From contig JBAZSB010000001.1 of NCBI GenBank assembly GCA_041662625.1, positions 681,385 through 745,384 of the forward strand: 64,000 nucleotides of DNA. The letters run 5' to 3'. Position numbers and translations under genes: made by a program. Below, piece after piece: positions 38,637 through 50,368 of the stretch. The number at the start of each line of letters is the position of its first letter. The first letter of the stretch is position 1. A model generated the notes under the pieces. That model was given only the letters and a program-made list of their open reading frames with translations. It was not told the DNA's origin and made no database searches. The stretch comes from Patescibacteria group bacterium (lineage in GTDB: Bacteria > Patescibacteriota > Patescibacteriia > Buchananbacterales > UBA6539).

Positions 38637-39551
38637 ATGGAAAAACTCATCCGCCAATTTCTCGAATACCTTGAGGTCGAACGCGGCCGCAGTCTTAATA
38701 CTATTCAAAACTACGATTTTTATCTTAAGCGTTTTTTAAACTGGTCAAAAATAAATTCCCCAAGCCAAATTAATCAGGACCTGATCCGGACCTACCGGCT
38801 TTGGCTGAACCGACAAACCGACCGTTTGGGTAAACCATTAAAAAAATCCACCCAAAACTACCATTTAATTGCCCTCCGGTCATTTTTAAAATATCTGTCT
38901 AAGCAAGATGTTAAATCTTTTGCTCCCGAAAAAATTGAGCTGGCCAAGATGCCGGAAAGGCAAGTGGAATTTTTGGAAGGTGATGATTTGGAAAGATTAC
39001 TTGAAGCGCCTTTAAAAACTAGCGAGTCAAAAATTATCCAGTTGCGCGATAAAGCGATTTTGGAATTACTCTTTTCTACCGGCCTGCGGGTATCAGAGCT
39101 GGCTAACTTAAAAAAAGATCAAATCAATTTGAAAAAAGATGAATTTACCATTCGGGGCAAAGGCGAAAAACTGCGGGTGGTCTTTTTGTCCAACCAGACT
39201 AAATATTGGCTTAAACTTTACTCCGAAGCCCGGCGCGACCTTTCACCAAGTTTATTTGTCCGAGCTGATCGGGCTAAAGGCAAAAAAGACCCGGAAAATC
39301 TGACGCCCCGAAGCATCCAAAGGCTGATCAAAAAATATTCCAAAGCCGCTGGCATCACCAAAAAAGTTACACCTCATACCATGAGACATTCTTTTGCCAC
39401 TGACTTATTGATTAACGGCGCTGACATCCGTTCGGTCCAAGCGATGCTGGGCCATGCTTCAATCACCACCACCCAAATTTACACCCATATTACCAATCAG
39501 CAACTAAGGGAAGTTTATAAAACATTTCATCAGCGTCGTAAAAAGGGTTGA
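38637..39551 (+). CDS. xerC: tyrosine recombinase XerC/XerD-like
   Basis: 304 aa; core-binding N domain, ...IRGKGEKLRVVF..., HTMRHSFATDLL..., LGHASITTTQIYTHI (R..H-R-H/Y catalytic residues). Confidence 0.8.
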   Translation: MEKLIRQFLEYLEVERGRSLNTIQNYDFYLKRFLNWSKINSPSQINQDLIRTYRLWLNRQTDRLGKPLKKSTQNYHLIALRSFLKYLSKQDVKSFAPEKIELAKMPERQVEFLEGDDLERLLEAPLKTSESKIIQLRDKAILELLFSTGLRVSELANLKKDQINLKKDEFTIRGKGEKLRVVFLSNQTKYWLKLYSEARRDLSPSLFVRADRAKGKKDPENLTPRSIQRLIKKYSKAAGITKKVTPHTMRHSFATDLLINGADIRSVQAMLGHASITTTQIYTHITNQQLREVYKTFHQRRKKG

Positions 39552-39689
39552 CTTTAATTGTTTTTTTTGCTATAATTAATCGGTGTAAATTTTTAATTTC
39601 GAATTTCGAATTTTGATTCAATATTATAATATTTTAATATTCAAAATTGATTCAAAATTAAAAATTAAAAATTCTAAATTAATCGCCTT

Positions 39690-39766
39690 GTCCCAGTAGC
39701 TCAACTGGATAGAGCAACAGCCTTCTAAGCTGTAGGTTGAAGGTCCGAGTCCTTCCTGGGACGCCA
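39690..39766 (+). tRNA. tRNA-Arg (anticodon TCT), CCA encoded
   Basis: Hand-folded cloverleaf: acceptor GTCCCAG/CTGGGAC, D arm GCTC-AACTGGATA-GAGC, anticodon loop CTTCTAA, T arm GAAGG-TCCGAGT-CCTTC, discriminator G then CCA. Confidence 0.85.
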
Positions 39767-39767
39767 A

Positions 39768-39841
39768 GCGCCCATAGCTCAACTGGATAGAGCATCAGCT
39801 TCCGGAGCTGGGGGTTGTAGGTTCAAATCCTACTGGGCGCA
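39768..39841 (+). tRNA. tRNA-Arg (anticodon CCG)
   Basis: Acceptor GCGCCCA/TGGGCGC, anticodon loop TTCCGGA, T arm GTAGG-TTCAAAT-CCTAC, discriminator A; starts 1 nt after the previous tRNA. Confidence 0.85.
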
Positions 39842-39877
39842 CTATTCCAGATTTGACTTTACACATTTATATAGGAA

Positions 39878-40055
39878 GGTGCGCACCCGCCTCTGGCGGG
39901 CAATGGATAGAATGTGGGCTTCCGGAGTCCCGACTGCGTCGGGATTCGATTCCTACTGGGAGCGATGGCGATGGCAAGTAGGAAAGCAGGTTCTCCGCCA
40001 CATTATCAAATTACAAAAAGGCGGATCCGCCTCTGGCGGAAAGTCCTGCTGGGCG
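39878..40055 (+). pseudogene. degenerate tRNA-Arg(CCG)-like fragments carrying GC hairpin inserts
   Basis: 39883-39970 mirrors tRNA-Arg(CCG) (CAATGGATAGAATGT, GGGCTTCCGGAGTCCC, ...CCTACTGGGAGCGA) with a CCGCC-TCT-GGCGG hairpin in the D region. 39971-40055 has a T-arm-like GCAGGTTC / TCCTGC split by the 47-nt element 39994-40040, then TGGGCGCG. Confidence 0.6.
39994..40040. repeat. 46-47 nt GC-rich hairpin element copy 1 (TCCGCC-N20-GGCGGATCCGCC-N3-GGCGGA) inserted in a T-loop
   Basis: About 90% identical to copy at 49211-49256; both inserted between ..GGTTC and the 3' half of a tRNA T-loop. Confidence 0.7.
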
Positions 40056-40142
40056 CGAATAATAACTTTTAACATTTGACAATTAACTATTAGCAGTAAA
40101 GCTTAAAGTTAAAAGTCAAATGTTAACTGCTAATTGTTATAT

Positions 40143-40178
40143 GGTGGCCATGGTGAAATGGTTATCACTAGAGTTTGC
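40143..40178 (+). repeat. partial duplicate of tRNA-His 5' half
   Basis: GTGGCCATGGTGAAATGGTTATCACTAGAGTTTG identical to 40252-40286, then diverges. Confidence 0.7.
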
Positions 40179-40250
40179 CTGCCCGACGGCCAAACTAAAA
40201 ATTCGTAAAAATAATTTAATACAAAAATTCCTAATTCTAGGGCGCAAAAG

Positions 40251-40323
40251 GGTGGCCATGGTGAAATGGTTATCACTAGAGTTTGTGGCACTCTCGTTAC
40301 GGGTTCGATTCCCGTTGGCCACC
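40251..40323 (+). tRNA. tRNA-His (anticodon GTG) with G-1
   Basis: G-1 + GTGGCCA acceptor, D arm GTGA-AATGGTTA-TCAC, anticodon loop TTGTGGC, T arm ACGGG-TTCGATT-CCCGT, 3' TGGCCAC + discriminator C. Confidence 0.8.
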
Positions 40324-41925
40324 CCTTTGCGCCTTATTTGGGGCTAAAACCCCGATTGACGCACCACCTAAGGGGTAATTTACAGGTTCTAACCACCTAC
40401 TGTATCGAAGTATTTGAGATAAGCCGTTTTCAACTATTGAGAACGGTTTATTTAGTTCTATAGTGAGTTTTTTGTCTTTCAGGGTAAGGTTCGAGCCTAT
40501 AGTGGTTAGGATGGCCTTTTTAGTCTCTAAGTCGCCATGCTCAAAGGCATAGGTGGCATTACAGGCAAAATCAAAGGTCTTTTTAACCAGCTCGCGCCAG
40601 TTGTCGGCCCGGTGTTCGGTCCCACGCATTGCTTCCCTGATTTTATTCAGCTGACCGGTTAATTCGGTCTTCTTTTGTTTATATTGTTCGTCATCGATCT
40701 GATCTTTTATCTTCATGTTTAACAAGTTATCTAACTGCCTTTCAAGGCTTTCACAGGTCCGCTGTTGATTATCATAAATCTTCTGCCGGTCTTCAGTTTC
40801 TTGGTCATTCATTTTATCAAGATATTCAAGCGCTATATCTTTAAAAGTTTCTGGTATTTTAATTTTTATCAGCTGGTTAACTATCTGCAATTCTAAATCT
40901 CTGACTTCCACGGTTTTTTGGGAACAGGTGGGTAACTTTCTTTTAATGCAACGATAATAAGTATAATGATGAACATGGCCATTGCCTTTGTTGGTTTTAA
41001 ATTTTTCTTCTGCGGTAATCATTGATCCGCACTCACCGCACCTGATCATACCAGTAAAAGCAAACACATGCTTCTGGGGCCGGGCTTTTCCTTTACGGCC
41101 CAAAAGTTCCTGAACCCTCCAGTATTCCTCTTCGATTATCATTTTCTCATGTTTGCCATCATACCAGTTGCCGCTACCCACTGGATATTCAAACTTACCA
41201 TAATAAAAAGGGTCATTAAAAATTCTGTATATTGAGCTTTCACTCATTGGCTTACCGCCCATTCTTCTTTTTACAGGCGTCCTATAACCCCACTCATTAT
41301 TGAGCTTGTTTAATATCTCGGATACAGGATGTAAACCAGTCAACATTAACTCAAACGCTTTTCTAATTAAAGGAAACCTTTCTGGATCCGTTAAAACTTT
41401 TTTTTCTCCTTTTAACCCAAGTTTATCTCCCATATAGCCCGGCTTAACAACACAAGGATTCCAACCCTGATTAACCTTTGCCATCAGGCCTCTTCTGGTA
41501 TTTGTTTTTAAGTCTAAAATAAACTGGTTAGCCATACCAAATTCAACATTCATAAGCATAACATTGTCTTCGGGATAATAATCACGTTCTGGCGTCCTTA
41601 TATGCTTAATAATGCCATTCTGTAAGAGATGTGATGTTTTACCACTATCCTCGGCATTTCTAGACAAACGATCCAGCTTCCAGCAAAGTATTCCCTGCGC
41701 CTCGCCACTTTTTATCCGATCCAACATCTCATTAAATACCTCTCGGCCCGTATCTTTAGCTGATTTTGACTCAGTAAATATTTTTACTATTTTAAGACTA
41801 AATTTGTTTGCTACTTCTTTCAGAGAATCAATTTGTGAGGGAATAGATAAAACCTGCCGGTCTTCTGATTCGGTTGACTTCCGGGCATAGATAAAATATT
41901 TAATTTTGTCCGAGTTGTCCTTCAT
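40297..41925 (-). CDS. large serine recombinase (resolvase/invertase N-domain + recombinase domain + zinc ribbon)
   Basis: 542 aa; N-terminal ...FIYARKSTESEDRQVLSIPSQIDSL... catalytic-Ser region, central recombinase domain, ...CGECGSMITAEEKFKTNKGNGHVHHYTYYRC... zinc ribbon; last 9 codons (GQRESNP) are encoded by the complement of the tRNA-His T-arm/acceptor. Confidence 0.8.
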   Translation of the reverse strand: MKDNSDKIKYFIYARKSTESEDRQVLSIPSQIDSLKEVANKFSLKIVKIFTESKSAKDTGREVFNEMLDRIKSGEAQGILCWKLDRLSRNAEDSGKTSHLLQNGIIKHIRTPERDYYPEDNVMLMNVEFGMANQFILDLKTNTRRGLMAKVNQGWNPCVVKPGYMGDKLGLKGEKKVLTDPERFPLIRKAFELMLTGLHPVSEILNKLNNEWGYRTPVKRRMGGKPMSESSIYRIFNDPFYYGKFEYPVGSGNWYDGKHEKMIIEEEYWRVQELLGRKGKARPQKHVFAFTGMIRCGECGSMITAEEKFKTNKGNGHVHHYTYYRCIKRKLPTCSQKTVEVRDLELQIVNQLIKIKIPETFKDIALEYLDKMNDQETEDRQKIYDNQQRTCESLERQLDNLLNMKIKDQIDDEQYKQKKTELTGQLNKIREAMRGTEHRADNWRELVKKTFDFACNATYAFEHGDLETKKAILTTIGSNLTLKDKKLTIELNKPFSIVENGLSQILRYSRWLEPVNYPLGGASIGVLAPNKAQRGGQRESNP

Positions 41926-42334
41926 ATTTTTTGTTTACTTTAATCGCACCAAACATTAAAAGGATAAGGGTTAAATAAACCAGAAACGGCACAAGCATTG
42001 TTAAAAAATTTATTACTCCAAATTCCTTTAGAACTGTTAGATTAAAAGAATCTAAAGTGGTTAAATAAAAGTCCAAGCCGGCAGTGGCTAAAAATACGAG
42101 AATAAAAAGCCAGCTGAAAGCTCTAAAAATTCTACCTAAAATAATTTTGTTGGTCTTGCTAGTGAAATAAAACAAGGTTAATGGCATGAACACCAGAAAT
42201 ATAAAATAAGAATAATACCAAAGCAAAAAATAAAGATGGCCGAAATTGTAATCGTCTTTAGTAAAACCAAAAATCCAACAAACTGCTATGACTAATAAGA
42301 TTGATAGACCTTGTAAGTGTAATTTTTCAGACAT
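41900..42334 (-). CDS. hypothetical small polytopic membrane protein (island cargo)
   Basis: 144 aa; 4 predicted TM; AT-rich codon usage. Confidence 0.4.
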   Translation of the reverse strand: MSEKLHLQGLSILLVIAVCWIFGFTKDDYNFGHLYFLLWYYSYFIFLVFMPLTLFYFTSKTNKIILGRIFRAFSWLFILVFLATAGLDFYLTTLDSFNLTVLKEFGVINFLTMLVPFLVYLTLILLMFGAIKVNKKYEGQLGQN

Positions 42335-42351
42335 ACTTTTAGGATTATTAA

Positions 42352-42882
42352 TTATAGATCACCGGTTAAAAAATGTAGTATAAAGTATGACAAAATTATT
42401 CCGGCGGGTATTATAAAATAAATAGCTGATTCAATGATTCTTTTGATTGACCGCCTTCTACCATCACTCATCTTTGTTGATTTTTCATCTACTTTCATAT
42501 CTGCATAAATAAGCCCACCAAACAAAAAACTAAAAATAGCAGTGCCAATACCAATTCTAATAAAAAGACCCTTGGTTTCTGTCCCTACCGGACTGTAAAT
42601 AGGATCACCCCATTCTATACATTCCCTATCAGGACCATTACCCCCGGACATAATACATGGTATTTCTTTAAGATACTTTCCGTCTGGTGTTATATTGCCA
42701 AGTATATTGAGTGCAAAAAAGACGAAGAATAAAGTAGCCCAAATAATTAACCAATACCCTATGGTATATTTCGGCACTTCTTTTGATGATGAGGCGCGAG
42801 GTAATTTCATATTTTTATTTTGGTGAGCCACTATAAAGCCCCCACCAGTTTTAAGGACCGAAGTCCTTCCATGCGCAAACAC
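42352..42882 (-). CDS. hypothetical membrane protein (island cargo)
   Basis: 176 aa; true start probably the internal MKLPRASSS; 12-bp perfect inverted repeat CATGCGCAAACA/TGTTTGCGCATG overlaps the annotated start. Confidence 0.4.
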   Translation of the reverse strand: MFAHGRTSVLKTGGGFIVAHQNKNMKLPRASSSKEVPKYTIGYWLIIWATLFFVFFALNILGNITPDGKYLKEIPCIMSGGNGPDRECIEWGDPIYSPVGTETKGLFIRIGIGTAIFSFLFGGLIYADMKVDEKSTKMSDGRRRSIKRIIESAIYFIIPAGIILSYFILHFLTGDL

Positions 42883-43062
42883 GGCCTGATGAGGGCATCA
42901 TAAATGTTTGCGCATGGTATTGAGTTATGCTTTAATTTTAGCTCTGCTTAGGGGGTTTGTAAAGATCAAAAGTTAATTTTTATATACAGAATTGGGGTAG
43001 TGCCAGTATCTAAAATCATTTTTTGAAAAATCTAGGAGTCACTCTTACATATAAAAATTTAT

Positions 43063-43674
43063 TTAACATCCTCCCTCCCTAGCTATTGTCTTAAAATTGC
43101 CATCAATTATATCGTCCTTTCTGAGATTACCGGAACGAGCGGCTAAAGCCAGCAGACTTAAAGCGGTTCTGTTTGAATTGCCATCCAGCTCTTTTATTTT
43201 TAAAGTTATTAGCTCATGTCTGTCTTTTGCTTCCATGCTTTTGAAAAGCCACGTCATTGCCTGATTAGTTGAAATCTCATCCGGCTTGGCCAATGCTTCG
43301 GCTAATTTTAATTCGCCTAGCTCTAAAGATTTTTTATAGATCGCTTGCCTTACTACTTCTTCATCTATGGCTTTATCGTCAGCCAACTGTAAAATCTTTC
43401 TTACCTTAAGTCGCTGATCTGCGTCGTATTTGCGAAAAAATCGGTAGCACGTCATATAACCCGCCTTACCCTTGAGTCGCGGTTCAATCTGAGCAAAATA
43501 TTGCTGGTGCATTTGCTGAAGCGAAAGCTTGCCTTTTTGTTCCTCGTAAACCTCAACTAGCTTCTCCATAAAAGGAGATGAGGCAATAATTGATTGAGAG
43601 TTTATAAGCTTCATGGTTGTAAATTCAGTGTTAAATAGGTGTAATTGATCTTGGGCCGCGTAATTCTTAAACAA
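43063..43674 (-). CDS. hypothetical protein (moderately GC-rich, island cargo)
   Basis: 203 aa helical protein; no motif recognised. Confidence 0.35.
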   Translation of the reverse strand: MFKNYAAQDQLHLFNTEFTTMKLINSQSIIASSPFMEKLVEVYEEQKGKLSLQQMHQQYFAQIEPRLKGKAGYMTCYRFFRKYDADQRLKVRKILQLADDKAIDEEVVRQAIYKKSLELGELKLAEALAKPDEISTNQAMTWLFKSMEAKDRHELITLKIKELDGNSNRTALSLLALAARSGNLRKDDIIDGNFKTIAREGGC

Positions 43675-43801
43675 GCTTGTTTCTGACTTACTTTAGGGCT
43701 TACCAAGATGATTCAGGCGAAACTAATGGAGTAAAATGAGTTGACTAATGCCGGTCCGGGATGACTCCTGCTCTTATTTCTGATTATATGGATCAAAACT
43801 T

Positions 43802-43972
43802 CTTAGGATGATAAAAATCCAAATATTTATTAAGTATGTCATCGGCAATGTGAGACTCCGGTTTTTTAAATTTAAAAGCCACTCTTCTTAGCTTCTCTTT
43901 GGTTGCAAGCGTAATTCTAACGTGCTGGGTATGTAAATTTGCGGAGTTAATTTTCTTAGTCATATTAAGTAA
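43802..43972 (-). CDS. possible ribbon-helix-helix (CopG/Arc-like) small DNA-binding protein
   Basis: Not in ORF track (56 aa): MTKKINSANLHTQHVRITLATKEKLRRVAFKFKKPESHIADDILNKYLDFYHPK; the HVRITLATKEKLRRVA beta-strand/helix pattern is typical of RHH regulators. Confidence 0.3.
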
Positions 43973-44208
43973 CTTGTTACCTTGTAGCCATCAGCGACTT
44001 CTATGGGCCAATAACACTCAAATGCTTTTTAAGGAATATTATCATCGTTTAAAGAATAGATTGTAAAATTTTGGCGATGGCCGATCCCAAATTTTACAGG
44101 GTTGATACTGGGCAAATTGGCCACCCGGTCGAGAAGTCGCTACTCGTTGCCGGGATTTAATCTGCCCACTATCTTGCGTCGAGTTTTGTCTGAGCATCAC
44201 GCAAAAGC

Positions 44209-44397
44209 TCAGCTATTCTCATTGTTAAAATTTTGTTTTGGTATTGGTCTATAAATAACCCTAAACAGGTTAACTAAATTATTTGCCATTTCTAAAGCCT
44301 CCTGCTCAGTAATTTCCTGATCAAATTCCTGCTTATAAGCAGTTTGGAATTTTCGGATCATTGTTTGTTTATCCTGCGGAGACATAAAAACGGCCAT
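44209..44397 (-). CDS. small hypothetical protein
   Basis: 62 aa, helical, no family. Confidence 0.25.
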   Translation of the reverse strand: MAVFMSPQDKQTMIRKFQTAYKQEFDQEITEQEALEMANNLVNLFRVIYRPIPKQNFNNENS

Positions 44398-44714
44398 TTA
44401 CTGTTTTGGCCGTTTGCTATTTGTTTAATTTAAATCCCCGGCGGAAGACAAAGAAAATAGCACAAACGCTGCCAATTGACAGTTAATGCACTTCTCTTTG
44501 ACTTCAGACCGGGGTGTGTCTAACTCATTAGTCCATCCCGTATTGCCTCCCTATACCTTTTCAGCTAGGGCCAGAATATGGGGGTGGTGGATTCTTGCTA
44601 GGGGTGTCCCGCGTAAACCCGAAAAGTAATATTTATTTTTGAATTAACTAAAATTATTGTAGCACCACATAATTGGCTGTCAATAGATTTTTTCGCAATT
44701 TTAGAGTGGCAAAG

Positions 44715-44808
44715 GATTGACAAATACAGACTGTGGAATGTTCACTTCGTTGCTAATTAAAGGGGAAATTCAGGGGTGCAATGGGTTGACAAATAACCTG
44801 TGGATAAG
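44715..44808 (+). promoter_or_regulatory. tandem direct repeats G(G/A)TTGACAAATA-N-CTGTGGA(A/T) upstream of the 519-aa island gene (promoter/operator candidates)
   Basis: Two copies about 68 bp apart (44715-44740; 44783-44808), each with a TTGACA hexamer; additional ATTGACAGTTAA at 44476 and 46398. Confidence 0.4.
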
Positions 44809-44849
44809 CTTGATTTAAACCTAGATTAAAACTATGCTTAAAAAGGAAT

Positions 44850-46409
44850 ATGCAAAATCAAGATGTATTCGAATTATACAAACCATTAAGAAATCATCTA
44901 AGACAAATTGATCTTTATGGATCTTTTTATACTATTTGGAATTATAGCCAACATCTATTATCCAACAAAAAATTCCCCAACGATGTCTTAGTTGCACCAG
45001 AATTTCTATCTTTAGATCAAATAGGAAAAATGAGGATGGTCTCTCTTTGGGAATTAGAAACATTATGTAAGGAAATAATAATAAACTCTCAAGAAGTGGA
45101 GGGGAAAAAAACATTAAAAAATTGGGAGTATTTCGCTAATGCAATAAATAAATTAAAAAAATTAGAAAATGATATTAGCGGAAAATTTGTAGATAAAAAT
45201 AATATATTATTGGAGATGCACAGAATTGCCCATAGACAATTTCCATGGCAGGCTGAAAAACCAGCGGCTATATCAATGACAAGATATTATAAAATTTTTA
45301 ATTATGAACCAATAAGTGAAATTATTAAAAAGGTGACTAATCTGTCTACCCAAGAATTATATATAATCGCAACGGCCTTATTTGGTCTCTACGAAAATAA
45401 ATTCACATTATTTTATCCCACCAAAATAGAAATAAAAGGAATATCAATAAAAAATTTTGACTACTTTTTAAACCATTTTTGCTGCGATATAAAAACACTT
45501 AAGGAAAAATTACTAAAAGAGCAAGAAATCAATGAAAAATTTGCTTACGCTTTCGGATCCTTAAGAGCCTATCCGATAATAAAAATGGCCATTCCTTCTG
45601 GTAAAGATGGCTTAGTGTGTCCACTACCAACATTACTGTTTTGGCGATTAACTAATGGCATCTATTATGAAATTTTTCGACAAAAGGATTTCGATAACTA
45701 TTTTGGTTTTTCTTTCCAGACATATGTTGGAGAGGTTATTAAAAAAGCTACCTATAATAAAAAGATAAAATACTATGCTGAAGAACAATATAGGATCGGA
45801 AAGGAACTAAAAGATACGATCGATTGGATAGTTGCAGATGAAGAAGGAACTTTGTTTATTGAGTGTAAAACAAAACGAATGACTTTCGGCGCCAAAACTG
45901 AGATAAATTCCATGGATGAACTGGAAAAAGAGCTAGATAAAGCGGCTGAATTTATATTACAAGTTTACAAAGCAATTAAAGATTGTTTGGACAATAAGTA
46001 TCCATCGTATAAACACAGATCTAATAAGAATATATTTCCCTTAATCGTTACATTGGAAGATTGGTATCTATTTGGTGATCTCACCTTAGAAAAATTAAAT
46101 GAAAAAATCAAAATTATGCTAAGTAATCACAAGATACCGACATCATGGTTAGATGATTACCCATATTCGATATGCTCCGTGTCAGAATTTGAAAAAATCA
46201 CACAAGTAATCCAACTTATAGATATTAAGGAATTTATGAGTAAAAAAGTTTTTGATCAAGACTGTAAAAAATGGAACTTTAGTCCATTTATCGGCAGTAA
46301 ATTCTCAGAAATAAACAACAAAATAAAATTCTTATTTCCCGAAGATTTTGATAGAATTTTCCCTCGACATTTGAGAGGAGATCAAAAAATTACACAAATT
46401 GACAGTTAA
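44850..46409 (+). CDS. hypothetical protein with PD-(D/E)xK nuclease-like motif (island cargo)
   Basis: 519 aa, AT-rich; ...DTIDWIVADEEGTLFIECKTKRMTF... fits hhhD-x(9)-ExK of restriction-endonuclease-fold nucleases; rest unassigned. Confidence 0.35.
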   Translation: MQNQDVFELYKPLRNHLRQIDLYGSFYTIWNYSQHLLSNKKFPNDVLVAPEFLSLDQIGKMRMVSLWELETLCKEIIINSQEVEGKKTLKNWEYFANAINKLKKLENDISGKFVDKNNILLEMHRIAHRQFPWQAEKPAAISMTRYYKIFNYEPISEIIKKVTNLSTQELYIIATALFGLYENKFTLFYPTKIEIKGISIKNFDYFLNHFCCDIKTLKEKLLKEQEINEKFAYAFGSLRAYPIIKMAIPSGKDGLVCPLPTLLFWRLTNGIYYEIFRQKDFDNYFGFSFQTYVGEVIKKATYNKKIKYYAEEQYRIGKELKDTIDWIVADEEGTLFIECKTKRMTFGAKTEINSMDELEKELDKAAEFILQVYKAIKDCLDNKYPSYKHRSNKNIFPLIVTLEDWYLFGDLTLEKLNEKIKIMLSNHKIPTSWLDDYPYSICSVSEFEKITQVIQLIDIKEFMSKKVFDQDCKKWNFSPFIGSKFSEINNKIKFLFPEDFDRIFPRHLRGDQKITQIDS

Positions 46410-46435
46410 CTGTAAAAGGTAGAATATAAAATTGT

Positions 46436-46891
46436 ATGAAAAAACTAATCAACATAGCGCTTTTTCTTTTATTATTTTGGCCGTTAGCCAGCTTGGCTCA
46501 TCCCGGCCGAACTGATGCTTATGGCTGTCATACCTGCCGGACAAATTGTCCATCATGGGGTTTAGATTATGATGAATACCACTGTCATAATACAAAGGCT
46601 TTACCACAACCAGAAGAACCAATCAAAAGCACTTACGGAGCTGGCGGCACAGGTTATACAGATCCAGCACCAGAATACAAAAAACCAGCACCTATTGAAA
46701 ACAATATCAATCCTAATGTAAATATCAATTCAGAAACTAATAGTAATAAAAACAATTTCCTCAATCAAAAAGTATTAGGAACAGAATATAATGAACCATC
46801 CTCCAAAGAAGATGATAATAATTGGCTTGGCTGGATTATTGGCCTAGGTGCTGCTGGCGCTGGAGGGTATTGGCTGACGAAAAAAAAATAA
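46436..46891 (+). CDS. YHYH-domain protein with signal peptide and C-terminal Gly-rich membrane anchor
   Basis: 151 aa; ...HPGRTDAYGCHTCRTNCPSWGLDYDEYHCH... matches the YHYH motif family; C-terminal GLGAAGAGGYWLTKKK. Confidence 0.55.
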   Translation: MKKLINIALFLLLFWPLASLAHPGRTDAYGCHTCRTNCPSWGLDYDEYHCHNTKALPQPEEPIKSTYGAGGTGYTDPAPEYKKPAPIENNINPNVNINSETNSNKNNFLNQKVLGTEYNEPSSKEDDNNWLGWIIGLGAAGAGGYWLTKKK

Positions 46892-46892
46892 T

Positions 46893-47873
46893 ATGTCTAA
46901 GATAAAAAAAGAAATTTACAATCTAGAATTTCCTCCTTACGTTAGCCAGCTAGAGATTGGGGGGTATATTTTTAAACGAATTGATAATTATAATCAGTTA
47001 ATAACCGAGTTACAACACTTTGTTAATATTTCCGGCTCTGAAAACCCGATTCAACCTAACACTGGGAAACATATGATTACTGCGACCGTATCTATACCTG
47101 AGAACGAAATAAAATGTTGTCTTCCTTGGACAGATCCAAATAGCACTCAAATTCTAGATGTATTATTTCTTTTAACAATATTTACTGGAAGAAGTGTTTT
47201 TGTTAAAGAATGGGAAGGCGATGCCCCAATTATCGCTGATCATCGCATACATCAATGGGGAGGCCAACTGCAGTGTTCCATTAAATATGAAGGTATGTGG
47301 AGGCACAAAGATACCGGAGAGATAAAGACGGAGCAAGAAATGGAAAAAAGTAAAATACCAATTTTTGATTATGATCATATAGATATTGGATTTGAAAAAA
47401 GTTTAAACAAAATACTAACGCTCATCTCAAATCCAGAATGGCAAGAAAAATATTCCGGTGGCTACTTCCTTTTTTTATTTAGAGACGCCACATTTAGACA
47501 AATACTAGAAAAATCGTTCCTAACTTGTTGGACAATATGGGAACAGATATTTTCCATTGAAAATTCCAAATGGCTGCCAGATGAAGAAATTTTTAGATTG
47601 GGGGGCGATAGAAAAATTGCCTATATTTTGAATAAATATTTTAATAAAAAAATAGATAAACGAGCATTGGCAAATATCAAACAACTTGCTAAATCAAGAA
47701 ATCGACTAGTGCATTTCGGCAAAAAGACTAATGACGTAACAAACGAGGAAAAAGAAATGTTTATTAGACTAACTGAACAGCTTATTGCATTGATATTAGG
47801 ATTAGAACCATCCAATATATTTAATTCTCTGGAAAAATTAAATAGTTTTCTAAATAAACAGCCGCATTGCTAA
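46893..47873 (+). CDS. hypothetical protein with C-terminal HEPN-like domain (canonical R-N-x-x-x-H motif)
   Basis: 326 aa; start 2 nt after the YHYH gene stop (coupled); ...ANIKQLAKSRNRLVHFGKK... gives RNxxxH in a helical C-terminal about 100 aa. Confidence 0.4.
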   Translation: MSKIKKEIYNLEFPPYVSQLEIGGYIFKRIDNYNQLITELQHFVNISGSENPIQPNTGKHMITATVSIPENEIKCCLPWTDPNSTQILDVLFLLTIFTGRSVFVKEWEGDAPIIADHRIHQWGGQLQCSIKYEGMWRHKDTGEIKTEQEMEKSKIPIFDYDHIDIGFEKSLNKILTLISNPEWQEKYSGGYFLFLFRDATFRQILEKSFLTCWTIWEQIFSIENSKWLPDEEIFRLGGDRKIAYILNKYFNKKIDKRALANIKQLAKSRNRLVHFGKKTNDVTNEEKEMFIRLTEQLIALILGLEPSNIFNSLEKLNSFLNKQPHC

Positions 47874-47973
47874 TATTAGTAGTTAATCTAAATAATATCT
47901 GGTTTTAGTATCAAATTTATTTAGCTAAAAAAATAAATATAAAATTAAAATATTAAAATAGACATGCAAAATT

Positions 47974-48627
47974 ATGTCCATGGGTATTGTTCTAATATTT
48001 CCTGGCGGTGTATTCTTGGCAGCCGATGGTCGCCAAAGTAATCCTATTAGGGGCAACAAACTAATTAGTGATAGCGTATCTAAAATAGAAAAAATTGATT
48101 CTAAACTTTTTATAATCCATTTAGGTATCTCTCAAGCCTCTAGTGTATCAGCTAAAGATTTCGCCAAAAGATATAAACTAAACGATGACCCGGAAAAACT
48201 AAAAACAAAACTTGAGACAAGCGTATCGATTGGTCTTCATAGTATAATACCTAGACTAAGCCCAGATATAGATATCCATAATCCAGCTATTAAAAGTATT
48301 CTTCTTCTGGGTGGGATCGCCCAACAAACCTCGTTTATTGCCGGAGCGCTTTACGGTATTGATAACAAATCGACAATCTGCGAAACTAGCTGCTACAAAA
48401 ATATTGTTCTAGGCGGAGAAGAATTGAACGCGAATACTTTTTTCAACAAAAAGTGTGAAGAATTGATTCATGGCCAAATATCAACTGATGAATTAGTGCA
48501 AAAACTAATAAATGCATCACGGGACACCATAAGAATGGCGGAAAAAAAAGATAAAAGGATTGGTGGAAAAATTAGCTATGCTGTAGCACAAATAAATGGT
48601 CCCACGATATTTAATACAATAAAATAA
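47974..48627 (+). CDS. hypothetical protein with proteasome-beta/HslV-like (Ntn-hydrolase) N-terminal pattern
   Basis: 217 aa; MSMGIVLIFPGGVFLAADGRQSNPIRGNKLISDSVSKIEKIDSKLFIIHLG parallels TTIVG..GVV.AAD.R.T.G..V.D...KI..I....CC.AG of proteasome beta subunits, but lacks the N-terminal Thr. Confidence 0.3.
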   Translation: MSMGIVLIFPGGVFLAADGRQSNPIRGNKLISDSVSKIEKIDSKLFIIHLGISQASSVSAKDFAKRYKLNDDPEKLKTKLETSVSIGLHSIIPRLSPDIDIHNPAIKSILLLGGIAQQTSFIAGALYGIDNKSTICETSCYKNIVLGGEELNANTFFNKKCEELIHGQISTDELVQKLINASRDTIRMAEKKDKRIGGKISYAVAQINGPTIFNTIK

Positions 48628-48642
48628 TAACGTGACTCTGCT

Positions 48643-49083
48643 ATGTCTTTTACTAGCCATATATATCAGATAAAATTTTCAGGATCAAGAATGCCTGAAA
48701 AAATTTTATTGTTTGAAAGCAATAAAATAATTATTGATTTTAACAAATTAAAACCTGACGATTACAGTTTTAAATTTGGTAGCTATTTCGGCACCAGTTT
48801 TGCACAAAAAATAATTACCATTAAAGACCCTAAATATATAACCAATGATAAATCCCCCAACAAAAAATTTTACCCCATATCAATTCTACATGAAATAGGT
48901 CATTCCAAACTACACAAAAGTCCTCCAAACAAAAAACCAGTGGGGCTTATAAAATACGAGATGGAAGCATGGGAATATGCGCTTGAAGAGATAAAAGACA
49001 AAAAACTAAAATATAATGCCGAGGAACTCCAAAAATTCATTTCAAAATGTCTTAAATCTTATATAAAAAATAATCACGCTTAG
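48643..49083 (+). CDS. ImmA/IrrE-family zinc metallopeptidase (HEIGH...E.EAW.YA)
   Basis: 146 aa; ...PISILHEIGHSKLH... then about 25 aa later ...YEMEAWEYALEEI..., matching the ImmA/IrrE HExxH...ExEANxFA signature. Confidence 0.6.
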   Translation: MSFTSHIYQIKFSGSRMPEKILLFESNKIIIDFNKLKPDDYSFKFGSYFGTSFAQKIITIKDPKYITNDKSPNKKFYPISILHEIGHSKLHKSPPNKKPVGLIKYEMEAWEYALEEIKDKKLKYNAEELQKFISKCLKSYIKNNHA

Positions 49084-49124: not shown

Positions 49125-49151
49125 GTTCTAACGTCGTCCCTTTCCCGACCC
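49125..49151. repeat. 27-nt direct repeat GTTCTAACGTCGTCCCT(T/C)TCCCGACCC, copy a
   Basis: 26/27 identical to 50342-50368; the pair brackets the GC-rich hydrolase gene. Confidence 0.75.
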
Positions 49152-49189
49152 TTTTGCGCCTTACCCTATTAACCCACTTTGGCGGCGGG

Positions 49190-49273
49190 TGGCACTCTCG
49201 TTACGGGTTCTCCGCCACATTATTAAATCAGAAAAGGCGGATCCGCCTTCGGCGGAGATTCCCGTAGGCCACC
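49190..49273 (+). pseudogene. tRNA-His 3'-portion copy interrupted in the T-loop by the 46-nt GC hairpin element (right att-like junction of island)
   Basis: GTGGCACTCTCGTTACGGGTTC + [49211-49256 insert] + GATTCCCGTAGGCCACC; matches tRNA-His 40285-40322 apart from the insert and one substitution. Confidence 0.7.
49211..49256. repeat. 46-47 nt GC-rich hairpin element copy 2
   Basis: TCCGCCACATTATTAAATCAGAAAAGGCGGATCCGCCTTCGGCGGA; see copy 1 at 39994-40040. Confidence 0.7.
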
Positions 49274-49411
49274 TGAACCTACGATGCAAATCGTAGTTTC
49301 AGGAAAAGACATCTCCCCTGTTTTGGGGAGGTATTTTTTATAAAAAAACAGAGCCCGCGCGAGTTTCACCTCGAGCAAGGCTCTAGATTAAAGTGTTATG
49401 TACCCATGAGC

Positions 49412-50221
49412 TTAGTCAGCCTCCGCCCATTGCCTGACAGATTCGGTAATTAACCGTTTCATCTCCGCCTGTTGGTCGGGCTCAGCGTAACTATGCTCAG
49501 CCCCGATCACAACTTGGACTTCGGTCCCAAGAACCGCGGCCAATCTACGGCTCTGGTCAATCGGCACGCAAGTGTCCTTCTCACCGTGGATGATCAGGGT
49601 GGAGCAACGGATGCCGGCTGACATACGCATCGTGTCATATGACTGAAGATCGACCCAGTAGTCGTAACTCAGGTCATACTCCACGATGTCATGATTATCA
49701 TGCAGGGTTCCCTGCTCTTGCCATTCCCTAATCTGTGTATTACCCAGCCGTTCTTGCCAGAAGCGTATTGGTTCAGTCACAGGGGACTTCAGGATCAGCC
49801 GTTCAACGGTCGGATCTTGGGCAGCCACAACCAGTGAGACTAGCCCGCCAAAGCTGGCACCGAGCAAGGCAATATGGTATTGCCCAATTCCTCGTAAATA
49901 AGCAATCACGGCGTTCAGACTGGCAACAGCCTTAGTCAGGGTAACATCGGCTGATACAGCGTATCCACTTGTGTGGCCGTAGAGCGGACCATGGCCGTAG
50001 TAGTCATACCGAACGGTTCCGATGCTCAAACGGTTAAACTCCCCCTGAAACTCTTTGTAGAGTCCGCTGTCTCCGCTTGAGGTAAATCCATGCGACATAA
50101 CAACAACTGCCCGGGCATCAGTCGGAATTGAGACGATCGTGCGCACAGGATTACCCGCCGAGTCATAAAGCACCATTGTTTCCTCTATACACATTAGACG
50201 ATTCCTCCCTTCGCTAGACAA
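49412..50221 (-). CDS. alpha/beta-hydrolase fold protein (GxSxG; dienelactone hydrolase/S9-like), GC-rich cassette
   Basis: 269 aa; nucleophile elbow LLGASFGGLV, ...HGEKDTCVP..., ...GAEHSY...; about 53% GC; RBS AAGGGAGG. Confidence 0.7.
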   Translation of the reverse strand: MSSEGRNRLMCIEETMVLYDSAGNPVRTIVSIPTDARAVVVMSHGFTSSGDSGLYKEFQGEFNRLSIGTVRYDYYGHGPLYGHTSGYAVSADVTLTKAVASLNAVIAYLRGIGQYHIALLGASFGGLVSLVVAAQDPTVERLILKSPVTEPIRFWQERLGNTQIREWQEQGTLHDNHDIVEYDLSYDYWVDLQSYDTMRMSAGIRCSTLIIHGEKDTCVPIDQSRRLAAVLGTEVQVVIGAEHSYAEPDQQAEMKRLITESVRQWAEAD

Positions 50222-50341: not shown

Positions 50342-50368
50342 GTTCTAACGTCGTCCCTCTCCCGACCC
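50342..50368. repeat. 27-nt direct repeat copy b
   Basis: See 49125-49151. Confidence 0.75.

Follow-up and report, generated by a model that had tools for sequence, protein, structure and literature searches.

A GC-rich double hairpin in the T-loops of tRNA gene fragments of a Patescibacteria genome belongs to a recurrent family of small palindromic units

Insertions at the loop tips of structural RNAs are represented by the non-canonical T-loop introns of archaeal tRNA genes and by the intervening sequences of rRNA, and T-loop position 56/57 is a known site of such archaeal introns. Cyanobacteria reportedly carry 'very small mobile repeated elements', small dispersed repeats that Elhai et al. 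are said to have described in 2008. Organellar genomes harbour double-hairpin elements, GC clusters and repetitive hairpin-forming elements, which are GC-rich modules in AT-rich genomes (PMC4478555, PMC2800124). Partial tRNA genes lying beside complete ones, sometimes stacked, are a well-known footprint of integrative elements (PMC9897764), and the T-loop and the anticodon loop are integrase sublocations within tRNA genes (PMC9897764, citing Williams 2002).

The 64-kb stretch of DNA analysed here, referred to as the window, has a GC content of 39% and carries two copies of a double hairpin inside tRNA-derived fragments (Table 1). In each copy a hairpin TCCGCC-loop-GGCGGA is directly followed by a second one, TCCGCC-N3-GGCGGA, and since the two units stand side by side the 12-bp palindrome GGCGGATCCGCC is formed at their junction. 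This palindrome occurs twice in the window, both times within the elements, where 0.06 occurrences are expected, and the window motif counts far exceed those of shuffled sequence. Both copies lie where the original prediction had placed them; the close likeness that it reported between them was borne out, the identity being 87% in the alignment instead of about 90%. Hairpins are found at three sites in the window.

Table 1. Features of the window discussed in the text
Feature	Position	Strand	Remarks
Strong sigma-70-like promoter (predicted)	39548-39576		Ahead of bacterial tRNA operon
tRNA-Arg(TCT), intact	39690-39766	+	ARAGORN, Rfam; functional counterpart of Arg fragments
tRNA-Arg(CCG), intact	39768-39842	+	ARAGORN, Rfam; functional counterpart of Arg fragments
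Pseudo-tRNA-Arg(CCG)	39878..39967	+	Not called by ARAGORN
Solitary hairpin unit CCCGCC-TCT-GGCGGG	39886-39900		D region of pseudo-tRNA-Arg(CCG)
Hairpin TCCCGAC-TGC-GTCGGGA	39928-39944		Variable/T-stem region of pseudo-tRNA-Arg(CCG)
Arg-like T-arm and acceptor 3' fragment	39985-40057	+	Host of copy 1
Copy 1 host, left: T-stem 5' strand and TTC, tRNA-Arg(CCG)-like	39985..39993	+	GCAGGTTC
Double-hairpin element, copy 1 (47 nt)	39994..40040	.	TCCGCC-N20-GGCGGA + TCCGCC-TCT-GGCGGA
Copy 1 host, right: T-loop 3' part, T-stem 3' and acceptor 3' strands	40041..40057	+	AAGTCCTGCTGGGCGCG
Orphan tRNA-His 5' half (G-1 to G34)	40143..40177	+	100% identical to 40251-40285
Candidate recombinase half-site CCTGCCCGACGGCCAAAC	40178-40195		Directly after orphan His 5' half
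tRNA-His(GTG), intact, T-loop uninterrupted	40252..40325	+	ARAGORN, Rfam
Large serine recombinase, 542 aa	40297..41925	-	Resolvase + Recombinase + Zn_ribbon_recom; opens ~9-kb low-GC island
Island right end: degenerate tRNA-His T-loop-to-3'-end mimic and trailer GTTCTAACGTCGTCCCTTTCCCGACCCTTTTGCGCCTTA, then CACTTTGGCGGCGG	49125..49188	+	
Copy 2 host, left: tRNA-His anticodon G34 to T-loop C56	49189..49210	+	GTGGCACTCTCGTTACGGGTTC
Double-hairpin element, copy 2 (46 nt)	49211..49256	.	TCCGCC-N19-GGCGGA + TCCGCC-TTC-GGCGGA
Copy 2 host, right: tRNA-His T-loop 3' part to discriminator	49257..49273	+	GATTCCCGTAGGCCACC
Second degenerate tRNA-His tail mimic	50342..50368	+	Beyond hydrolase gene

Inspection of the junctions revealed that both elements are inserted between T-loop positions 56 and 57, after GGTTC and before R57-A58. 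With H standing for the element and slashes for its ends, the context of copy 1 is GCAGG-TTC/H/AAGT-CCTGC-TGGGCGCG, in a tRNA-Arg-like fragment, and that of copy 2 is ACGGG-TTC/H/GATT-CCCGT-AGGCCAC-C, in a tRNA-His fragment. When the element is taken out of the sequence a 5-bp T-stem and a 7-nt loop are regained at both copies, in agreement with the exact insertion claimed in the original prediction. The host T-stem was present in all minimum-energy folds of both copies. The folding that the prediction proposed as a check gave -16.3 and -19.1 kcal/mol for the single strands of the two copies (z = -3.9 and -5.6), the complementary strands fold equally well, and two conformers are possible, namely two side-by-side hairpins or an outer helix around a hairpin of the central palindrome.

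The two hosts derive from different tRNA genes. The right part of the copy 1 host resembles the 3' end of the intact tRNA-Arg(CCG) upstream of it. The left part of the copy 2 host is identical to positions 40285-40306 of the intact tRNA-His, and its right part differs from that gene by T66A; a native-looking trailer and terminator (49311-49332) follow this tRNA-His 3' half. The 3' half (49189-49273) and the intact tRNA-His gene bracket the low-GC recombinase island. Copy 1 lies about 210 nt upstream of tRNA-His and outside the island, so that of the copies predicted at both island borders the His copy alone occupies one. The shorter hairpin predicted in the D region of the pseudo-tRNA-Arg is present, in the form CCCGCC-TCT-GGCGGG, and the relative L225 has kept it in the corresponding position. 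Arg fragments equivalent to those of the window were found in an island-free syntenic relative (L009/L216) and in the metagenome contig L204.

An unbiased scan with the pattern CCGCC-N15-25-GGCGGATCCGCC-N3-5-GGCGG, which contains no tRNA sequence, in one genome per species retrieved at least 118 loci. Among the matches listed about 57 copies belonged to genomes below 56% GC, and the matches in GC-rich actinomycetes were coding or chance in appearance. The low-GC copies come from Parcubacteria and other Patescibacteria, Omnitrophota, Elusimicrobia, Kiritimatiellia, Planctomycetota, Firestonebacteria and Ignavibacteria; they sit in AT-rich non-coding DNA and nearly always carry the extra T and A that close 6-bp stems. 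Eight of the roughly 57 low-GC copies among the matches listed stand exactly after GGTTC at T-loop position 56/57, a placement with a chance of about 1 in 1000 per copy. The D-arm or the 5' head of tRNA fragments is occupied as well (L005, L007, L026 and L093), and about three quarters of the listed copies lie outside recognisable tRNA sequence. Up to four contigs per MAG carried copies among the matches listed. A second scan in which the GGTTC junction was required yielded 100 metagenome contigs; the junction GGTTC/TCCGCC...GGCGGA/RAnTCC is also present in several genomes of Patescibacteria, Omnitrophota and others, and more than 100 tRNA loci of uncultivated bacteria carry it. These contigs and the T-loop bias dispose of the possibility, raised with the original prediction, that the two copies have neither further relatives nor a preferred target. 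Searches of the IMG/VR viral contigs with two element patterns gave zero matches.

Analysis of the T-loop loci revealed a common architecture, in which a tRNA gene is followed by a short spacer, xxGGTTC, the element and a tRNA tail. An intact tRNA of the matching type was found on the same strand, 11-220 nt upstream, in about 70 of the 86 parsed T-loop cases, and the tRNA-associated copies cover at least 18 amino-acid types. The sequence behind the insert, from position 57 to the discriminator and often including CCA, is identical or similar to the 3' end of the upstream tRNA, the tail adjoining the hairpin being often 100% identical to it, and the bases ahead of GGTTC often duplicate the 5' strand of its T-stem. 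Some hosts are longer or full-length pseudo-tRNAs with extra hairpins in the D, anticodon or variable region (L204, L193 and L100). Whole units are tandemly repeated at L163, L167, L187, L100, L026 and L005, and mirror-image units consisting of a tRNA 5' head and the element lie upstream of tRNAs at L026, L005, L224 and L093; at L005 and L093, where the element occupies the D-arm, its orientation is opposite to that of the tRNA. An origin of the fragments as retro-copies of mature tRNA was rejected, the CCA test being mixed in both directions: CCA is carried by the fragment and not by the gene at 10 loci, and by the gene and not by the fragment at 13 loci. The His 3' half has the form of an attR-type partial tRNA, which describes the host and not the hairpin. 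At the T-loop junction no target-site duplication was seen; direct repeats of 9-20 nt do occur, with a spacer between them and the element. The flanks of the copies outside tRNA sequence share a weak consensus, YTK/H/RAW, and the D-arm site GTT/C is out of register with the T-loop site GTTC/R.

Comparison of the copies indicated that the basic unit of the family is one hairpin, TCCGCC-loop-GGCGGA, which occurs solo, in tandem or nested. The 6-bp stem is invariant and the loop ranges from 3 to about 45 nt, with tips that vary from 3 nt to long secondary hairpins. Every unit starts with TCCGCC and finishes with GGCGGA, and thus has terminal inverted repeats like those of MITEs. Single units matching [TC]CCGCC-N3-5-GGCGG[AG] numbered 196 in the low-GC loci, 123 of them adjoining another unit and 73 solitary. 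Nesting takes place in the first loop of another unit, as in TCCGCCAGCTTG(TCCGCC-GCA-GGCGGA)CGGCGGA, where parentheses enclose the inner unit, and the kindred hairpins TCCCGAC-N3-GTCGGGA and CCCGCC-N3-GGCGGG are found in the same contexts.

The consensus fold of a 12-member subfamily comprises the T-stem and two 7-bp helices. All pairs of both helices are unchanged and a double change was seen in three pairs only, a pattern of sequence conservation more than of structural covariation. When the two strands of 140 half-elements were folded, 47 favoured the forward and 54 the reverse strand; as the strands fold equally well there is no sign that one of them, as RNA, is the selected form. Rfam gave no family match for the element at either threshold, and some subfamilies have conserved internal loops. 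That the same 24 stem bases are kept without exception in different phyla suggests sequence-specific recognition by some factor. Clustering of 1496 ORFs from 104 loci gave no neighbour protein conserved in more than five loci. An intrinsic terminator was considered, the central palindrome with a minus-strand T-run being flagged at both window copies; GC-rich members of the family lack the T-run, so this role is not general. A promoter in the AT-rich first loop was likewise set aside, with no consensus match there.

The recombinase ORF of the window extends into the 3' part of the intact tRNA-His, and homologues of its product number in the thousands in Patescibacteria. Islands at the same tRNA-His, in the same Xer-S15-PNPase neighbourhood, are found in the relatives L223, which is a MAG of Candidatus Buchananbacteria, L224, whose recombinase is 67% identical and which comes from the sample that gave the window, and L225. 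All islands terminate in the 27-mer GTTCTAACGTCGTCCCTTTCCCGACCC, which resembles a degenerate tRNA-His from T-loop to 3' end, and its recurrence in the second tail mimic of the window suggests serial integration at a hot spot. The upstream Xer-like tyrosine recombinase (38637-39551) was rejected as a partner of the element: it is a syntenic housekeeping neighbour in the relatives and no general companion of the element.

The island junctions in the window read 5' half/CCTGCCCGACGGCCAAAC and CACTTTGGCGGCGG/3' half, CACTTTGGCGGCGG being the inverted partner of the half-site behind the orphan 5' half. The layout with an orphan tRNA 5' half recurs in L224 and, at tRNA-Trp, in L093. In L224 the orphan half is again from tRNA-His, ends in the anticodon loop and is followed by GCCGCCGCCGCGGGCCAAAG, the full tRNA-His is overlapped by the recombinase gene, and the far end reads ...CTTTGGCGGCCCAAG/GTGGCA..., continuing as the 3' part of tRNA-His. 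The DNA behind the 5' half and that ahead of the 3' half form imperfect inverted repeats with TTTGGC/GCCAAA in both the window and L224. We infer that these repeats are candidate attP halves of a serine integrase, left after integration into the symmetric anticodon arm, and on this reading the island would bring its own tRNA-His. A clean common central dinucleotide was not visible at the island junctions. None of the junction motifs is the double hairpin, and the island recombinase most likely uses the tRNA-His anticodon loop rather than the double hairpin, as judged from these motifs. L223 is devoid of the His 5' and 3' fragments, the 3' fragment being absent in L225 too, and recombination between the duplicated 5' halves is a possible cause of the loss in L223.

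To place the His copy in time the relatives were compared. Since tRNA-His is uninterrupted in the island-free L009/L216 and in L223, the gene was originally without the insert. Among the species compared, the window and L224 have a filled T-loop; in L224 the homologous His 3' fragment carries an insert of about 115 nt at the same position, GTTC/GATTCC. Alignment of this insert with the window element gave CCGCC...TTATTAARTCAG...GGCG..TCC...GGCGGR, in which the central palindrome is lost. The homologous insert implies that the insertion predates the split of the window and L224 lineages and has been decaying in one of them, and its decay in L224 is the behaviour of unselected DNA and not of an essential site. 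Filled and empty strain variants were not seen: look-ups with exact proteins returned the same arrangement, or contigs ending before the repeats, so mobility is deduced and not observed.

The reading that we favour, and to which we give about an even chance, is that the element is a miniature non-autonomous palindromic DNA repeat of the REP/MITE kind which has persisted, at a hot spot of integration, inside the loops of tRNA copies that are redundant. The units would resemble REP- or MITE-type selfish or neutral DNA, being small, non-coding, GC-rich, present in either orientation and located in AT-rich intergenic DNA, and would be strongly biased to the loops of tRNA-gene stem-loops, chiefly to T-loop position 56/57 (GGTTC/RA). 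Because a T-loop insertion would destroy a working tRNA, surviving copies would be those in redundant tRNA copies and fragments, and such fragments may accumulate beside tRNA genes used as hot spots of integration. The hosts in the window would then be a leftover tRNA-Arg 3' fragment and a tRNA-His 3' half displaced by integration of the recombinase island, which carries a tRNA-His itself, at the anticodon loop. On this account the element would move, would insert after the tRNA copies had become redundant, and would act as DNA by means of a trans-acting enzyme.

The palindromic-repeat reading is favoured by three sets of observations: the hairpins, and not the spacers, are common to units at different tRNAs; the units occur solo, in tandem and nested, most of the listed unbiased copies having no recognisable tRNA flank; and no integrase accompanies them. 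Against it, no transposase or nuclease is linked to the copies, and the weak consensus at non-tRNA copies together with the out-of-register D-arm site makes a single target rule uncertain. The short spacers and the constant position beside a duplicated tail would fit equally well an element that is part of a duplicating unit. A RAYT as mobiliser was rejected: Y1/RAYT genes were found in L001 and L224 only, the L001 gene being flanked by other hairpin repeats, and tblastn detected no RAYT in the window. The tRNA-targeting miniature mobile element listed among the options of the original prediction remains the best-supported of them, with the amendments that its unit is a single hairpin, that most listed copies are not at recognisable tRNA sequence and that no movement has been observed.

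A bolder form of the proposal, which we hold tentatively and consider rather unlikely, is that the unit represents a new class of miniature elements that home to structure, or else serves a new integrative unit as its recognition module. It would be directed to the stem-loops conserved in all tRNA genes (T-loop 56/57, D-arm) by an enzyme that reads the TCCGCC/GGCGGA hairpin of folded DNA. If so, the tRNA flanks in several uncultivated phyla would be arrays of captured tRNA ends. In a radical variant, the second hairpin and the adjoining 20-nt tRNA tail could be transcribed as a guide-like RNA against tRNA genes.

Among the other explanations, the double hairpin might be the working part of small integrative units, as a binding or folding site (ssDNA or cruciform) for a trans-acting integrase, which we regard as possible and on balance doubtful. 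A tiny circular or mobilisable DNA would carry the hairpin-interrupted T-arm mimic and a tRNA 3' end, and a crossover to the right of the hairpins would restore the tRNA and leave the spacer, xxGGTTC, the hairpins and the old tail downstream. This would account for the duplicated tRNA end that always adjoins the element, for the tandem repetition of whole blocks (L163, L167, L187, L026 and L005), for fragment tails that are often unlike that of the neighbouring gene, CCA included (the 10 versus 13 loci above), as expected if one of the two tails is foreign, and for the position of the His copy at an island junction. However, the loci contain no integrase, the viral contigs contain no copies, and 65-120 bp is very small for site-specific excision. 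Moreover, units at different tRNAs have the hairpins alone in common and not the spacers, a T-loop crossover would put the insert inside the overlap region, and about 75% of the listed unbiased copies are not beside recognisable tRNA sequence.

We consider it improbable that the element acts as RNA, be it as an intron-like or intervening insert removed from tRNA-like transcripts, as a structured spacer for the processing or stability of polycistronic tRNA transcripts, or, in a variant, as the guide-like RNA. The sense orientation inside tRNA operons in all T-loop cases, which follows from the construction of the junction, would agree with such a role, as would a few full-length tRNA-like hosts with good acceptor and D arms, one compensatory-looking T-stem change between L100 and L136, the conserved internal loops of some subfamilies and the tails, often identical to tRNA 3' ends. 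However, most hosts lack the 5' half, so that no tRNA can form, and in the full-length hosts the anticodon arm is replaced by a perfect hairpin. The reversed orientation in the D-arm cases, the symmetric folding of the strands, the near absence of covariation and the decayed homologue in L224 also argue against it. The splice points would face each other across one helix and there is therefore no bulge-helix-bulge geometry; what lies between the boundaries is a single 6-bp helix or the T-loop internal loop, and no 3-nt bulges 4 bp apart were seen. ARAGORN called no tRNA in the spliced window copies. A group I or group II intron was rejected, 46-80 nt being too small and Rfam giving no match, and so was an archaeal-type intron, the hosts being incomplete, an intact tRNA lying next door, geometry and size being wrong and an Rfam match lacking. 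The intron-like insertion put forward in the original prediction thus finds no support, given hosts that mostly lack a 5' half, the adjacent intact tRNA, the presence of both orientations and the symmetric folding.

The original prediction had also named GGCGGATCCGCC as a possible crossover site or att core for the large serine recombinase of the island, and this we regard as very improbable. One copy does lie at the right island junction, and a perfect 12-bp palindrome resembles a dimer binding site; the left copy is outside the island, and island-free relatives have the element at tRNA-Arg. When the recombinase was compared by tblastn with 218 element-bearing loci one match only was obtained, at 31% identity, in L093, which has the same plan as the window at tRNA-Trp and is the sole other element locus where a recombinase homologue occurs. 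The element is independent of the recombinase, being present without a homologue nearby at more than 100 tRNA loci; a better attP candidate, with dyad symmetry, is offered by the different junction motifs, which recur in L224. Chance similarity, or plain segmental duplication of one tRNA-containing segment, has practically no claim left: some likeness is expected from two tRNA-derived hosts, but the likeness of the copies extends leftwards no further than GGTTC and rightwards no further than the generic RAnTCC, with flanks from different tRNAs that are otherwise unrelated, so the copies are not one longer duplication; the motif counts are far above those of shuffled sequence, and there are hundreds of independent copies elsewhere.

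If the palindromic-repeat reading is true, there would be a cross-phylum family of palindromic repeats of 15-80 nt with a precise affinity for tRNA-gene loops. For annotation, tRNA finders miss or miscall the insert-bearing fragments, and these fragments break metagenome assemblies, contigs of ERZ27249449 ending in or near the region. The family bears on the role of tRNA genes as integration hot spots in streamlined genomes. It may also lead to an enzyme that reads a short DNA hairpin and a conserved loop, a matter of relevance to HUH transposases, to integron-like single-strand recombination and to programmable insertion. Were it merely inert debris, the element would still be a useful marker for displaced tRNA fragments.

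Compared with REP and REPIN sequences, which RAYTs mobilise, the element is likewise a short GC-rich extragenic palindrome, multicopy, non-coding, often paired and, as a DNA hairpin, without strand preference. Unlike them it has no linked RAYT, and its units stand in direct tandem and not as inverted doublets; REP sequences are not known to insert precisely in the T-loops and D-arms of tRNA genes. With MITEs and the small repeats of cyanobacteria it shares a size of 15-50 nt, terminal inverted repeats that form hairpins, nesting and a non-coding nature. It differs from these in the lack of a consistent target-site duplication, in its presence in several phyla, in its 24 invariant bases and in its strong bias for tRNA loops, and no autonomous relative with a transposase was found, there being no recurrent protein near the copies. 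The organellar hairpin elements are similar in that they insert in intergenic DNA and in structural RNAs and that their mobility is inferred by comparison only. They are, in contrast, mitochondrial, and we know of no sequence relationship with the present element and of no report of a T-loop 56/57 junction among them.

The archaeal T-loop introns differ in several respects, the present element being bacterial and hosted by fragments, with no bulge-helix-bulge and no evidence of removal. Its hosts are partial tRNA copies of the kind known as attR-type remnants. Known attR remnants are plain direct repeats, whereas here a conserved foreign double hairpin splits the T-loop and the gap between gene and fragment is mostly 6-220 nt. 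The element is set apart from all of these systems by the exact T-loop 56/57 junction, by the 24 invariant bases common to several phyla and by its link with very short duplications of tRNA tails. A paper library searched for the element sequence and for tRNA genes with T-loop or hairpin insertions gave nothing relevant beyond background on partial tRNA genes and organellar hairpin elements. The hairpin family with its affinity for tRNA loops is real, recurrent and apparently undescribed; partial tRNA genes are already known, and the new part appears to be the conserved foreign hairpin that splits the loops of tRNA fragments.

Inspection of the island junctions revealed that an orphan tRNA-His 5' half, in the window and on the reverse strand of the island-bearing relative L224, is broken in the anticodon loop. 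The DNA lying 3' of this half and the DNA lying 5' of the 3' half form imperfect inverted repeats with GCCAAA/TTTGGC in common. Judged from sequence, the large serine recombinase has a candidate attP in these repeats and would have integrated into the anticodon arm, and the island would bring its own tRNA-His as part of the same candidate arrangement. The motif CCTGCCCGNC marks the start of foreign DNA at junctions that lie variously in anticodon, D and T loops of tRNAs, in the window, the two relatives L224 and L225 and the metagenome contig L204. This is a hint that loop-directed insertions include a second family, or that the motif belongs to half-sites of a recombinase.

The island is closed in four genomes (the window, L223, L224 and L225) by the 27-mer GTTCTAACGTCGTCCCTTTCCCGACCC, a degenerate tRNA-His segment running from the T-loop to the 3' end. 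A second window copy was found past a hydrolase gene, and this repetition suggests stacked or remnant islands. The cargo is almost wholly unannotatable and may be of defence type, the sole matches, both weak, being to HEPN_Apea and DUF234.

Positions of the features in the window and in related loci
Feature	Window	Other loci
Split tRNA-His junction with inverted repeats	40143-40195, 49174-49189	L224 9833-9900, 18810-18835 (reverse)
Motif CCTGCCCGNC	40178	L204 ~590; L225 ~9255 (reverse); L224 ~18850 (reverse)
27-mer GTTCTAACGTCGTCCCTTTCCCGACCC	49125-49151, 50342-50368	L223, L224, L225
Hydrolase gene	49412-50221	
Island cargo	41900-49083	
HEPN_Apea match	46893-47873	
DUF234 match	44850-46409	
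tRNA-His flanks	40238-40252, 40324-40336	L009 6350-6360, 6266-6276
tRNA-Arg(TCT) T-loop	39740-39756	
AT-rich inverted repeat	40069-40126	
Terminator-like sites (minus)	40017-40034, 49233-49250	
LAGLIDADG-type ORF		L225 11662-12108 (locus coordinates)
tRNA-Val-like genes		L100 4590-4900
REP-associated tyrosine transposase gene		L001 3700-4560

The intact tRNA-His is flanked by an extended acceptor helix, in which GGGCGCAAAAGGG on the 5' side pairs with CCCTTTGCGCC on the 3' side. The equivalent positions in the island-free relative L009 carry ACAACAAAGGG and CCCTTTGTTGT, thus the pairing is preserved despite the sequence change; the helix may be a processing signal tied to the encoded G-1. The T-loop of tRNA-Arg(TCT) reads TCCGAGT, in which a C takes the place of the almost universal U55 (L223 has TTCGAGT), so that the GGTTC junction motif is absent from this gene, and neither fragment nor hairpin was found 3' of it in the window. 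A LAGLIDADG-type ORF of L225 is bordered on one side by a tRNA-His 5' part that stops after G37 and on the other by a complete, divergent tRNA-His, and LAGLIDADG and GIY-YIG ORFs were found again close to clusters of tRNA genes at 4-5 other loci.

The stretch from the Arg fragment to the His 5' half contains an AT-rich inverted repeat (26-nt arms, 85% complementary, 6-nt gap), and a similar stretch rich in TTAACAATTAAC occupies the equivalent place in L225. Read on the minus strand, both double-hairpin copies score as intrinsic-terminator-like through their central palindrome, after which comes the T-rich first loop, a feature of the window copies that is not general across the family; transcription running antisense into the tRNA operon could be stopped by such a site.

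Three further loci, L100 (Omnitrophota), L136 and L147, contain full-length tRNA-Val-like genes in tandem. Their acceptor and D arms are good, the T-loop holds the double hairpin, and a perfect hairpin, CCCGACG-TTA-CGTCGGG, stands in place of the anticodon arm. With the insert spliced out, the tRNA-Val-like gene is called a UAA suppressor by ARAGORN. In the Parcubacteria MAG L001, one double-hairpin copy lies 3 kb from a REP-associated tyrosine transposase gene (NCBIfam NF047646, 89 bits), which has its own flanking repeats, GTAACGCACTAAAGTGCGTC... and GGAACGACAGACTTTAGTCTGTTAC.
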